Source of the DNA: an uncultured Methanosarcinales archaeon | GTDB taxonomy: Archaea > Nanobdellota > Nanobdellia > Woesearchaeales > JAGVZT01 | Direction of reading: 5' to 3' | Assembly: GCA_964419615.1 (NCBI GenBank) | Contig: CAYQPU010000042.1 | Location: forward strand, 1-10,260 | DNA: 10,260 nucleotides | Shown: positions 53-7,065 of the stretch, one piece after another | How positions within the stretch are numbered: position 1 is the stretch's first letter | Layout of the letters: every line of letters starts with the position of its first letter | Translations under genes and position numbers: made by a program | Notes under the pieces: generated by a model | Database searches by the model: none | What the model was told of the DNA's origin: nothing | Seen by the model: only the letters and a program-made list of their open reading frames with translations

Positions 53-58
53 GAGGTG
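53..58 (+). promoter_or_regulatory. Shine-Dalgarno GAGGTG preceding a putative ATA start at 66
   Basis: GAGGTG matches the archaeal SD consensus (GGAGGUGA). ATA at 66-68 is in frame with the ORF-track ORF 120..416. TATA-like TATATAAA at 3-10. Confidence 0.7.
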
Positions 59-65
59 TTTCAAA

Positions 66-416
66 ATAGTAAAATACAAGAAGGGTCAGAAAATTAAAGG
101 GATAAAAAACAAACCCTTATTGAAAAAGAAATTAGCAATCGTTAGAAAGAAACGACTGGCTTATGCTGGTGGAAAAACTGGTAATTATACAATTACTATT
201 GGTGCTGCAAAAAAAGTAGCAAAGAAAAAAAAGGCTAAAAGAAAAGTAGTCAGAAAGAAAAAACCAGTTAGAAGAAAACCGGCTAAAAGAAAAGTAGTCA
301 GAAAGAAAAAACCGGTAAAAAGAAAAAAACCTGCTAAAAGGAAAGCTCCTAAAAGAAAACCTGCTAAGAGAAAACCAGCTAGAAGGAAACCGGCTAAAAG
401 AAGACGAAGGCGGTAA
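66..416 (+). CDS. Lys/Arg-rich histone H1-like basic protein (116 aa from ATA 66; 98 aa from TTG 120)
   Basis: About half of the residues are K/R, there are no D/E, PAKRK-type motifs repeat, and it ends in RRRRR. The frame is open from 36. SD + ATA gives MVKYKKGQKIKG..., whereas TTG 120 has no SD. Function is inferred from composition only. Confidence 0.75.
   Translation: MVKYKKGQKIKGIKNKPLLKKKLAIVRKKRLAYAGGKTGNYTITIGAAKKVAKKKKAKRKVVRKKKPVRRKPAKRKVVRKKKPVKRKKPAKRKAPKRKPAKRKPARRKPAKRRRRR
233..313 (+). repeat. Exact 33-bp direct repeat (233-265, 281-313; 48-nt period) within the basic protein gene
   Basis: GGCTAAAAGAAAAGTAGTCAGAAAGAAAAAACC occurs twice and encodes AKRKVVRKKKP; more degenerate PAKRK units follow. 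Confidence 0.9.
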
Positions 417-450
417 ATTTTTTTTTATTTTATCCTATTTCTTTTTTTTT
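417..450 (+). terminator. Oligo-T archaeal-type terminator candidate
   Basis: Long T tracts immediately after the TAA of 66..416. Confidence 0.55.
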
Positions 451-453
451 AAA

Positions 454-765
454 ATGGGGAAGCTTGACAAAGGAAGGTGTGGTTTGTGTTGCAGTCTTGT
501 AGTTAGACTAAATAAGGATGATATTGAAAGAATCAAAAAGCTAGGTTTTTCTAAAAAATATTTTGTTGAAGATCATCGAGATGATAAAATCTTAAAGAAA
601 GTTAATGGTTATTGCCAGTTTGTTTTAATAAAAGAAGGTATTGCTACTTGCACAATATATGATAAAAGACCAAAGGTTTGTAGAGATTATGTTTGTATTC
701 CTGATGGAATGGATGATTGCAAACTAAAAAGACACTACTCTATAACTGATTATAGCAAAATCTAG
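454..765 (+). CDS. YkgJ-family (CxxCxxCC-type) zinc/iron-chelating cysteine-cluster protein
   Basis: RCGLCC near the N-terminus, then CQF...CTIYDKRPKVCRDYVC, which is the typical C.F...C.IY..RP..CR.Y pattern. Confidence 0.85.
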   Translation: MGKLDKGRCGLCCSLVVRLNKDDIERIKKLGFSKKYFVEDHRDDKILKKVNGYCQFVLIKEGIATCTIYDKRPKVCRDYVCIPDGMDDCKLKRHYSITDYSKI

Positions 766-2033
766 AAATAATCTTCCAAACCTTTTTGTTTTGGTTTAGG
801 TATTGTGTTGTGAGTTTGTTTTTTGTTTTCTACCTGTTCAACAAACAAAGGTTTACCATATACTCCATCATAGCCTGGCTTAACTTTTATGTTTTGCTTT
901 CGATTTAATAGAATATATTTGACAATTTTGATATCAATGTGCTTTTCTAATTCTTCTTGAGTTACATTTAACATGATATTTAATTCATTTCCAAAGTTCT
1001 CAATAAGTTTGTTATATATTCCCCATACTTTCTGTGTGGCAACACCCATACCTAATACTCCTGCAATGATTTCTGACAAAGGGATTAATTTTGTGAATGG
1101 TACGGCTTTTTTTGGAACAAATCCTTCTGGTCTGTCTGCAAGTTCTTCAACTCTGTGTAGTACACCTAAAGTTAAAGGTTTTTTACATACAGGGCATATA
1201 TTTTTGTTTGATAAAGATTTTTTTGGTTCATATACAATTCCGCATTTTCTATGACCATCATAATGATATTTACCTTCGTGGGGCCAGAATTCAATTGTCT
1301 CAACAAAACCTTGCTTTGTTTTAAGCGTATTTAGTATGTTATTGTAAGTTAATTCTTTCAAATCAAATATATTACATTCTCTTCCTAGTCTCCATGGCCA
1401 ATGACTGTGAGCATCTGAATTGCTTATTAGTGTGTATTTGTCCAAAGCAGAGAGTCTCCAATTCATTTGTGGGTCTGAACTAAGACCTGTTTCTAGAGCA
1501 TGGATGTGTTTTGTTTGGTCTTTGAAACAATCCTGGATCTTATCAAATCCTGATTTTGAGCCAAATAGGCTAAACCATGGAGTCCATATATGTGCTGGGA
1601 TTACTTCTATTTGTTTGTTTATTTGTTTAAGCATTTCTACAAAATCAGGACAAGGTATGCCAAATATTGGCCTTCCATCATAGTCAAGTCTTCCTATGGT
1701 TAATAGTTTTTCATTGATTTGTTGCACTGTTGCAATGTCTGGTGCGAGTATCACATTGTGAATTTTTCGCCCCTTTCCATCTTGAGTGTATATTAAAGAT
1801 ATTTCTGTTTGTAAGATGAAATTGAATCCTGAGTTGGTTTTTAAGATTCCTGTCCCATCTTCACGAAGTGTTTGCTTTAGTTCTTTTAACCATTCGGGGT
1901 GCGTGAAGTCACCAGTTCCAAGCAGATTGACTCCTTTGATTTTAGCATATTTTTCAAGATTAGTAATTGTCAATGACTTTGATGTTGCTCTTGAATATTT
2001 TCCATGGATGTGAATATCTGCAATAATTTTCAT
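762..2033 (-). CDS. Endonuclease Q family protein (PHP domain + Zn finger), damaged-base DNA repair endonuclease
   Basis: ADIHIHGKYSRATS, GTGDFTHP, PAHIWTPWFSLFGS, ETGLSSDP, SNSDAHS, GKYHYDGHRKC...CPVC...GVLHRV, and a C-terminal PIP box QKGLEDYF. Confidence 0.92.
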   Translation of the reverse strand: MKIIADIHIHGKYSRATSKSLTITNLEKYAKIKGVNLLGTGDFTHPEWLKELKQTLREDGTGILKTNSGFNFILQTEISLIYTQDGKGRKIHNVILAPDIATVQQINEKLLTIGRLDYDGRPIFGIPCPDFVEMLKQINKQIEVIPAHIWTPWFSLFGSKSGFDKIQDCFKDQTKHIHALETGLSSDPQMNWRLSALDKYTLISNSDAHSHWPWRLGRECNIFDLKELTYNNILNTLKTKQGFVETIEFWPHEGKYHYDGHRKCGIVYEPKKSLSNKNICPVCKKPLTLGVLHRVEELADRPEGFVPKKAVPFTKLIPLSEIIAGVLGMGVATQKVWGIYNKLIENFGNELNIMLNVTQEELEKHIDIKIVKYILLNRKQNIKVKPGYDGVYGKPLFVEQVENKKQTHNTIPKPKQKGLEDYF

Positions 2034-2055
2034 ACTGTGTCAAATGTTTTAATAT

Positions 2056-5522: not shown

Positions 5523-6254
5523 TTAATCATCATCAAAAAATGATTGCAATGATCTATATTCTTGTTTTTCTTTTGGTATTTCTAGTTCAATAAAAGCCTT
5601 TAAGAACTTTTTCCTACTCGGCTTTTTATATGTTTTGTATAATTTCTTTGCTAAAGTCTCTGGTTGTGAAAGTTGAGAGTTTTGAAGTATTTGGATTAAT
5701 AGATTCTCAAATGCTTTTTTTTCTACAATTTTTTGAGTCTGGGAGTCTTGTAAAAGGTTTTTGAGAAGTTTTCTTTTTGTTGGATGTTTTGTGTTTTTGA
5801 TTAAAAGTGCTAGGTTATCTGGGTCTTCGAATAAGACATGTCTAATTAATTGTAGTGTTCTTAATACCGGATCTTGGTAGTTTTGCATGTCAATGTTTTT
5901 TGTTACTTGGTATAGAATATCTTGGAATTGTAGGATAGTTATTCCTTGGATGTTTTGCTCGACTGTTGTAACTAGAACTTTTTCATATTCACCTGTGTAC
6001 CCTAAATGTTGTTTTAGGTAGGATTTTATTGCTTTTTCTATTCCTGGCTTATTGAATTGCTCTTTTATTGCTCTTGGAGAATTAGGTTGCATTGATACAG
6101 AACAGTTTACTTCAATATGCTGGATGATTGGATCTTTTGTTGCTTTTATAGCTAGAATGTCAATTACTCTGTTTTTACCTGCATTTAGATTATTAATTAC
6201 TCCAAATCCATTTTGGTTTAGCCAGATGTTTACTATTTTCTTTTCTGGAAATAT
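5523..6254 (-). CDS. Hypothetical protein with N-terminal PD-(D/E)xK nuclease-like motif (243 aa from ATA 6254)
   Basis: The 54-codon extension upstream of ATG 6092 reads (M)FPEKKIVNIWLNQNGFGVINNLNAGKNRVIDILAIKATKDPIIQHIEVNCSVS, with SD GGGGTG at 6267-6262. The fold assignment is from motif recognition only. Confidence 0.75.
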   Translation of the reverse strand: MFPEKKIVNIWLNQNGFGVINNLNAGKNRVIDILAIKATKDPIIQHIEVNCSVSMQPNSPRAIKEQFNKPGIEKAIKSYLKQHLGYTGEYEKVLVTTVEQNIQGITILQFQDILYQVTKNIDMQNYQDPVLRTLQLIRHVLFEDPDNLALLIKNTKHPTKRKLLKNLLQDSQTQKIVEKKAFENLLIQILQNSQLSQPETLAKKLYKTYKKPSRKKFLKAFIELEIPKEKQEYRSLQSFFDDD

Positions 6255-6294
6255 TGTAATCCACCCCTTATAGTGTAATATTTAAGATTTCAAT

Positions 6295-6305
6295 ATATAA
6301 ATGTT
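6295..6305 (-). promoter_or_regulatory. BRE/TATA promoter of the nuclease-like/antiporter operon
   Basis: Minus strand AACATTTATAT, identical to the EndoQ and MFS promoter 11-mers. Confidence 0.65.
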
Positions 6306-6325
6306 GTTGAAATGTTGTTGAAATG
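6299..6325. repeat. 11-bp tandem repeat (AAATGTTGTTG x2 + AAATG)
   Basis: Units at 6299-6309 and 6310-6320, partial unit at 6321-6325; abuts the TATA box. Confidence 0.85.
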
Positions 6326-6376
6326 CTCTTGGTTTGCCCATAGGTAATAAATACCACTATTTAGTAATTAAAATAG

Positions 6377-6389
6377 AAATATTTATATA
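6377..6389 (+). promoter_or_regulatory. BRE/TATA promoter of the zincin-like gene
   Basis: AAATATTTATATA in the divergent intergenic region; SD-like AGGTG at 6412-6416. Confidence 0.55.
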
Positions 6390-6423
6390 AAGACTTTTAT
6401 TCAAAGTTGATAGGTGTTTAAAA

Positions 6424-7065
6424 ATTAGTTTAAAAACTCATACTATGCAATGGACAGGTATTGCTGTGCCTATAAATAGTCTGGATTTCATCTTTTATGA
6501 TGGTGTGTTTAATAATTGGCAGGAATATGTTAAATTCTTATATAATGCTGAATTCTTCGGTGACACACTTGATTGGGGTATGTCTTACAATGAATTTGAA
6601 AAGAGTTTTCTTACGAAGATACGATTTTCAGGTTTGACAAGTGATAAAGGTGGTGGAACAAACCTAAATTTTGAATATGAAAGTGAAGAAGCATCAGGAA
6701 AGGTTTTTAGATATGGACATACAAGATATACTGACATTGGGAGTATTTTATCTTCTAATGGTTATGGTTTGTTTGACACATTTATTCCAGGACATGAAGA
6801 GGTTCATATACTAGCAACAAGATCACAGACTGGTTTGTTTGTATCTGAAATGAGAAATCAAGGTGTGAAACTAGGTAAGGAGTATGATAAGGACAGACTT
6901 ACACAAGATCAAGAGGAAACTTTAGCAAATTTAGGTGGTTTTACTTCGCTTCAAAAGAATTGGCCCAACTTTTCCATAAGTATGCTTTCTGATTACAAAC
7001 ATGATGATAATTTTGAAATAGCAAGAGAGTTGTATAATTCAAAGAGTCTTCATAATAAAAGTTAG
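6424..7065 (+). CDS. Hypothetical HExxH zincin-like metallopeptidase (start ATT 6424 or ATG 6445)
   Basis: GHEEVH followed about 35 aa later by EETLAN, a gluzincin-like third-ligand motif. ATT 6424 is in frame, 8 nt after the GGT of TAGGTG; ATG 6445 has no SD. Confidence 0.7.
   Translation: MSLKTHTMQWTGIAVPINSLDFIFYDGVFNNWQEYVKFLYNAEFFGDTLDWGMSYNEFEKSFLTKIRFSGLTSDKGGGTNLNFEYESEEASGKVFRYGHTRYTDIGSILSSNGYGLFDTFIPGHEEVHILATRSQTGLFVSEMRNQGVKLGKEYDKDRLTQDQEETLANLGGFTSLQKNWPNFSISMLSDYKHDDNFEIARELYNSKSLHNKS

Follow-up and report, generated by a model that had tools for sequence, protein, structure and literature searches.

How strictly does an archaeon hold to canonical start codons when a Shine-Dalgarno (SD) motif positions its ribosome? 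The question is raised by a 10,260-nt stretch of DNA from an uncultivated DPANN archaeon (the window, which is all of contig 42, 10.26 kb), for which a first-pass annotation listed six SD motifs ahead of genes and claimed that five of them lead to ATA, ATC, ATT or GTA and that initiation at such codons is systematic. Our analysis indicates that three window genes, starting at 66 on the forward strand and at 5505 and 6254 on the reverse strand, and at least four genes elsewhere in the genome very probably start at near-cognate AUH codons (ATA, ATC or ATT in DNA, hereafter ATH) behind an SD. This usage is a rare, SD-anchored minority class that is partly conserved within the family; it is not systematic, and no rule of initiation is rewired.

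The nearest relatives of the arginyl-tRNA synthetase encoded here are found in Candidatus Woesearchaeota records. The source genome (G000) is a 99%-complete metagenome-assembled genome of 1.48 Mb and 33.4% GC, which was compared with G001 from the same genus, G002 and G004 from other genera of the same family, G003 from the same family and G023 from another family. The 3' end of its 16S rRNA reads ...GGATCACCTCCT, and therefore GGAGGTGATC is the true SD consensus. All six pairs of motif and codon were located at the claimed positions, with the GGT core 7-8 nt ahead of the codon, equivalent to an offset of 10-11 when counted, as throughout, from the first G of the core. Genome-wide, ATG codons that open a long frame peak at offsets 9, 10, 11 and 12 (80, 62, 36 and 25 cases, respectively); the six pairs fall within this peak, and their spacing is therefore the functional one. 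The window genes with ATH starts and their SD motifs are as follows.

53..58, forward strand: SD GAGGTG of the basic-protein gene, matching the 16S anti-SD; GAGGTG(A) is kept in G001 and G004
66..416, forward strand: gene of a Lys-rich basic protein, putative start ATA 66; ATH at the same codon in two relatives, no earlier canonical codon
4243..5505, reverse strand: Na+/H+ antiporter gene, putative start ATC 5505; PF00999 match, and ATH, ATG or TTG at or next to this codon in relatives
5512..5517, reverse strand: SD GAGGTT of the antiporter gene, read from the sequence, 17 nt past the upstream gene's stop codon
5523..6254, reverse strand: gene of a conserved hypothetical protein, PD-(D/E)xK-like according to the first-pass annotation, putative start ATA 6254; start codons of relatives at the aligned position, alignment from residues 1-4
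6262..6267, reverse strand: SD GGGGTG of the 5523-6254 gene, read from the sequence

The frame of the basic protein runs from the stop at 33-35 to position 120 without an ATG, GTG or TTG; its earliest canonical codon is TTG 120, 18 codons in. The start codon is ATA in the same-genus relative G001 and ATC in G004, a member of another genus, where ATC stands only two codons past an in-frame TGA and the next 31 codons hold no canonical start. The antiporter frame likewise has no canonical codon from TGA 5529-5527 to TTG 5403, and position 4 of the Pfam profile Na_H_Exchanger (PF00999) falls on residue 13 of the ATC-started protein. The codon at this position is ATC in G001, ATC in G002 and ATT in G004; in eight more distant genomes this codon or its neighbour is ATG or TTG, and an AGAGGT-type SD is kept ahead of the start in all antiporter orthologues. 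The frame of the conserved hypothetical protein is open from 6281, and its first canonical codon, ATG 6092, lies 54 codons in. Twelve relatives match the ATA-started protein from residues 1-4, and the codon aligned with ATA 6254 is ATG in nine of 11 relatives (including G001), GTG in one and TTG in one. The start region reads GGGGGTGG-AAATTT-ATG in G001 and GGGGTGG-ATTACA-ATA in G000, with GGGGGTGG of G001 at the same offset; a TATA box (TTTATATA) 47 nt upstream of ATA 6254 leaves a leader of about 17 nt.

In favour of the ATH starts, the conserved N-termini have no canonical start ahead of them, and the Pfam profiles set in on the ATH codon or no more than about 10 residues past it; in orthologues the aligned codon is ATG, GTG, TTG or again ATH and is led by the same SD. 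Judged by this comparative evidence, which is independent of the original observation, ATA 66, ATC 5505 and ATA 6254 can be regarded as confirmed non-ATG starts; the other two of the five claimed, ATT 6424 and GTA 3806, were not confirmed. Start codons of the validated genes do stand at the same or the adjacent aligned position as those of their orthologues, and the claim that AUA, AUC and AUU serve as starts on SD-led mRNAs is borne out by orthologue and Pfam support. Two of the three genes are adjacent, and their gene order is kept in G001, G002 and G004.

The real starts could instead be the downstream canonical codons TTG 120, TTG 5403 and ATG 6092, the conserved codons upstream of them being untranslated. 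These are the starts that standard gene callers report, and conserved promoter DNA that happens to be in frame can mimic N-terminal conservation, as it does in many leaderless genes. However, a start at TTG 5403 would cost the antiporter its first transmembrane helix and 22 residues of its Pfam domain, one at ATG 6092 would delete 54 residues whose conservation extends down to about 30% identity, the downstream codons have neither an SD nor a TATA box of their own, and the upstream segments do not resemble a TATA box with its TFB-recognition element (BRE). We consider this explanation very improbable.

Probable near-cognate starts elsewhere in the genome

When genes were screened for coding signal that extends ahead of their earliest canonical codon, four further clear ATH starts came to light, and in none of the four is there an in-frame ATG, GTG or TTG between the upstream stop and the N-terminus. 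The purA start region reads GAGGTGA-TGTAAG-ATA in G000 and GGAGGTGA-TTTAAG-ATG in a same-family relative, and position 1 of the Adenylsucc_synt profile falls on residue 5 of the ATA-started protein; one purA orthologue comes from an unpublished genome (G006), of which the claim is independent. In the thymidine kinase gene, ATA follows immediately after an in-frame TGA and is kept in the same genus, with position 3 of the TK profile at residue 11. The Epimerase Pfam profile of an NAD-epimerase begins with position 1 on the ATA itself, and the ATT of a secreted RHS-repeat protein opens a textbook signal peptide. Each of the seven validated ATH genes, those of the window included, carries in its leader an SD (4-8 bases) at offset 10-12.

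Three other interpretations or candidates were discarded. Read-through of the TGA in ATG-AGG-TGA ahead of purA was ruled out, the genome using the standard code (88% of it lies in open frames). A deoxynucleoside kinase gene on contig 6, with ATA behind GGAGGTGAT, was dropped as a clean case, an in-frame ATG lying two codons upstream inside the SD. The argG gene was rejected as an ATH start: its ATG is shifted out of frame by a single base, in an A6 run that follows a GGAGG SD (contig 44, about 4522-4540), a homopolymer indel that may be an assembly error, a real frameshift or a site of slippage. Two further genes are interrupted in frames that stay open and coding-like beyond the break, a radical-SAM gene on contig 2 near 15583 (forward strand) by an in-frame TAA, and a long gene on contig 21 (reverse strand) by an in-frame TGA within a Gly/Ser linker.

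Homology at the N-terminus was also assessed by all-against-all BLAST of stop-to-stop open reading frames from G000, G003 and G023, which looks for conserved N-termini upstream of canonical starts. Most of the extensions so found are artefacts, namely BRE/TATA promoter DNA in frame with the gene, and just four genes passed: purA, the 6254 gene, the antiporter and the epimerase. Promoter BRE/TATA elements (e.g., AACCCAAAAATATATATA) are conserved between genera in these three genomes, so that protein BLAST extends false N-termini across them; conserved promoter DNA is thus a trap for homology-based start calling. An ATH start outside the family is possible on contig 1 of G023 near 566930 (forward strand), where 42 coding-like, Glu-rich codons precede the first canonical start, and ATC and ATT stand 8 nt and 14 nt past the first G of AAGGT, just after an in-frame TAA.

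Among 1461 likely genes of G000, 264 have an SD of at least 5 bases and a canonical start (215 ATG, 20 GTG and 29 TTG), beside about seven validated ATH starts (three in the window and four outside). ATH starts thus make up about 0.5% of all genes, or about 3% of those led by an SD, ATG, GTG and TTG accounting for more than 95% of the latter. The local ratio, in which only one of six SD-directed starts is ATG, is not seen genome-wide.

Several observations weigh against the proposed ATH starts. Genome-wide, neither ATA nor ATT nor ATC peaks at the SD offset, and bulk comparisons of ATH with the remaining codons that follow an SD gave odds ratios of 1.0-1.7, none of them significant (p = 0.10 for 1.7); the bulk tabulation lacks an ATH signal because Ile codons and pseudo-SDs made of Gly codons swamp the few true cases. 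For SD motifs of at least 6 bases without a canonical start, 13 of 62 are followed by ATH, compared with 11.8% expected (p = 0.03). No initiator tRNA was found in the G000 assembly with ARAGORN and Rfam RF00005, which gave 10 tRNA genes, none with a CAT anticodon. Genes that are otherwise intact carry in-frame stops or, in one case, a one-base frame error in this assembly, and hence the two ATA starts specific to G000, those of the 6254 gene and purA, could be lesions or errors. For SD motifs of at least 6 bases without a canonical start, 13 of 62 are followed by ATH, compared with 11.8% expected (p = 0.03).

If lesions or consensus errors were the explanation, these two ATA codons would be recent inactivating mutations or miscalled bases in genes that are dying or wrongly read. 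Close relatives have ATG at both positions, a change from G to A fits the AT bias of G000 (33.4% GC compared with 35.6-35.8% in relatives), and the broken radical-SAM and Gly-linker genes, as well as the displaced argG ATG in its A6 run, show the kind of defect that is assumed. However, the two frames (243 and 407 codons) show no other defect, their proteins match Pfam profiles or orthologues strongly, and the SD is retained; nor can this explanation account for ATH codons kept in independent genomes, as in the antiporter, the basic protein and the thymidine kinase. It appears quite unlikely to us.

Leaderless genes, the initiation machinery and start-codon selection

Leaderless initiation depends on cognate codon-anticodon pairing, and the pattern in G000 agrees with this. 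Most genes of G000 are of the leaderless type, with a TATA box about 30 nt upstream, the start at the 5' end of the transcript, and ATG only. Measured from the 5' end of the TATA box, ATG has its peak at 28-33 nt, with 104 cases at 30 nt, and no peak is seen there for GTG, TTG or ATH across the genome. Every kind of non-ATG start is therefore confined to SD-led mRNAs. The claim that leaderless genes use ATG only thus held, and the three window genes cited for it fit at 30, 30 and 34 nt (background on leaderless initiation is given in PMC7531240). Their promoter elements are listed here.

2056..2063, reverse strand: TATA box (TTTATATT) of a 423-aa gene named EndoQ by the first-pass annotation, 30 nt upstream of its leaderless ATG 2033; read from the sequence
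8829..8836, reverse strand: TATA box (TTTATAAC) of argS, 30 nt upstream of its leaderless ATG 8806; assigned by the genome-wide leaderless spacing
10226..10233, reverse strand: TATA box (TTTATATC), 34 nt before ATG 10199 of an MFS transporter; assigned by the same spacing

A loss or divergence of aIF1 (SUI1), as might have been expected under relaxed selection, was not seen in G000. The factor is present (102 aa, 81.8 bits to PF01253) and close to that of M. jannaschii (4MO0), with which it aligns end to end at 121 bits; the zinc knuckle and the basic loop are conserved. As for the tRNAs, only the 10 genes mentioned above are detectable despite the 99%-complete assembly, and the length of several matches, 85-164 nt, suggests that they hold long introns or inserts.

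These results bear on the broader proposal that start-codon selection is relaxed throughout the lineage, the family tolerating AUN generally on SD-led mRNAs so that many genes are affected. For comparison, the same pipeline was run on 1.2 Mb of G023 and 0.78 Mb of G003, and gave 1-2 and 0-1 ATH candidates, respectively, compared with seven in G000 (p = 0.015 to 0.09), which hints at an excess in G000 over its relatives without establishing it firmly. Three of the roughly seven validated starts lie on the 10.26-kb contig 42 (P of about 0.002, corrected for the number of windows). Besides these numbers, the proposal can draw on the ATH codons kept across genera in two genes and on further ATH codons at the SD-defined position in relatives, namely ATT in the deoxynucleoside kinase gene of G001 and ATA in pilin-like genes of G002 and G007. 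It is contradicted by the missing ATH peak at the SD offset and by the 264 canonical SD-led starts set against about seven ATH starts, the same two counts on which the claim of systematic ATN initiation failed. GTG and TTG shares are equal in G000, G003 and G023, aIF1 is intact, and the excess over relatives is borderline. A general relaxation is therefore unlikely in our judgement, and the restricted, SD-anchored use of ATH starts is retained as the better description.

Other starts in the window

The remaining SD-associated starts of the window belong to a row of pilin-like genes and to an orphan gene.

2263..2278, forward strand: SD GGAGGT and ATG 2276 of the first pilin-like gene, an ordinary SD-led start at offset 10, within the ATG peak
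3207..3223, forward strand: SD-like GGTGGAG and TTG 3221 of the third pilin-like gene, absent from the earlier list; in frame with open reading frame 3125-3691 and after the stop of the preceding gene
3761..4246, forward strand: fourth pilin-like gene, with in-frame candidate starts ATG 3761, GTG 3797 and GTA 3806 (AAGGTG at 3794-3799)
6411..6447, forward strand: TAGGTG, ATT 6424 and ATG 6445 of the orphan gene, with a TATA box at 6382-6389; candidate starts

The four genes at 2276-4246 on the forward strand encode signal peptides of class III (prepilin-like) with the pattern K/R-A/S followed by Q-x-x-M/I-E/D-F/V and then a hydrophobic helix, and the row looks like a small archaeal pilus operon. 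TTG 3221 is the likely canonical start of the third of them. GTA 3806, proposed as the start of the fourth, is not required as one because ATG 3761 and GTG 3797 lie in frame upstream; the codons that family members have at this position (GTA, GTT, GTT, ATA, ATA and GTG) alternate between Val and Ile, as would fit an internal codon. A leaderless ATG is well placed upstream in the same-genus orthologue, but in G000 a TATA-like run at 3741-3758 sits too near ATG 3761 for a leaderless start. This fourth gene is conserved in 20 of 40 relatives.

The orphan gene has no homologue in 40 relatives or in a search of 5.8 billion proteins. ATG 6445 lies seven codons after ATT 6424 and lacks an SD; judged by the TATA box at 6382-6389, transcription is predicted to begin near 6412, which would place TAGGTG at the very 5' end of the transcript. 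The choice between ATT 6424 and ATG 6445 appears about even.

Proposed mechanism, known systems and significance

It is proposed that the duplex between SD and anti-SD holds the 30S subunit and so places the AUH codon in the P site, where the ordinary initiator Met-tRNA would pair with a mismatch at the third position and give initiation of low but sufficient efficiency. Some of the AUH starts would be recent changes from ATG to ATA, as in the 6254 gene and purA, both with ATG in close relatives; others would be old and maintained, such as the antiporter start (ATC or ATT in three genera) and that of the basic protein (ATA or ATC). Leaderless mRNAs would rely on codon-anticodon pairing alone and hence use ATG only.

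The nearest known cases are the AUU starts of infC and pcnB in E. coli, in which AUA, AUC and AUU initiate at 1-2% of the level of AUG and only two AUH starts are confirmed (bioRxiv 10.1101/063800). The starts described here share with them the single third-position mismatch to the initiator anticodon, the SD dependence, the low intrinsic efficiency and an unusual codon that evolution has conserved in a particular gene. They differ in that the machinery is archaeal (aIF1, aIF1A and aIF2, with no IF3), in that AUA and AUC occur besides AUU, in their number (about seven genes compared with two), and in that no autoregulatory logic is known for them (10.1101/063800). GUG and UUG starts are in this genome likewise SD-led only (20 GTG and 29 TTG of 264, none at leaderless positions), whereas the AUH mismatch concerns the third base of the codon and not the first, and AUH is far rarer. 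In annotated genomes, switches from AUG to AUU occur at 1.6e-5, compared with 5.9e-3 for GUG (PMC5622118). With respect to archaeal leaderless initiation, the class into which most G000 genes fall, the ATH genes stand outside, all seven having an SD leader. Over the published baselines, about 0.5% of genes with AUH starts, some of them kept across genera, would be a modest but real addition for archaea.

For annotation, callers that accept only ATG, GTG and TTG cut the P-loop of PurA, the Rossmann motif of the epimerase, the first transmembrane helix of the antiporter and a conserved domain of 54 residues. The expectation that gene callers truncate such N-termini is thus correct for the ATH genes, and its extension to many genes is not, less than 1% of genes being affected. 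For the biology of this uncultivated DPANN archaeon, the seven genes offer a clean comparative case in which AUH appears to be tolerated only where an SD anchors the ribosome. The split in fidelity between SD-led and leaderless mRNAs is proposed here and is testable in archaeal in vitro initiation systems. One may go further and suppose, tentatively and as a rather unlikely extension, that AUH is a deliberate low-output class maintained by a Woesearchaeota family on its SD-led mRNAs, with somewhat relaxed aIF1/aIF2 proofreading and with the antiporter, the chromatin-like basic protein and nucleotide-salvage enzymes as examples. If true, this would be the first natural archaeal system with a measurable and conserved difference in start-codon stringency between SD-led and leaderless mRNAs.

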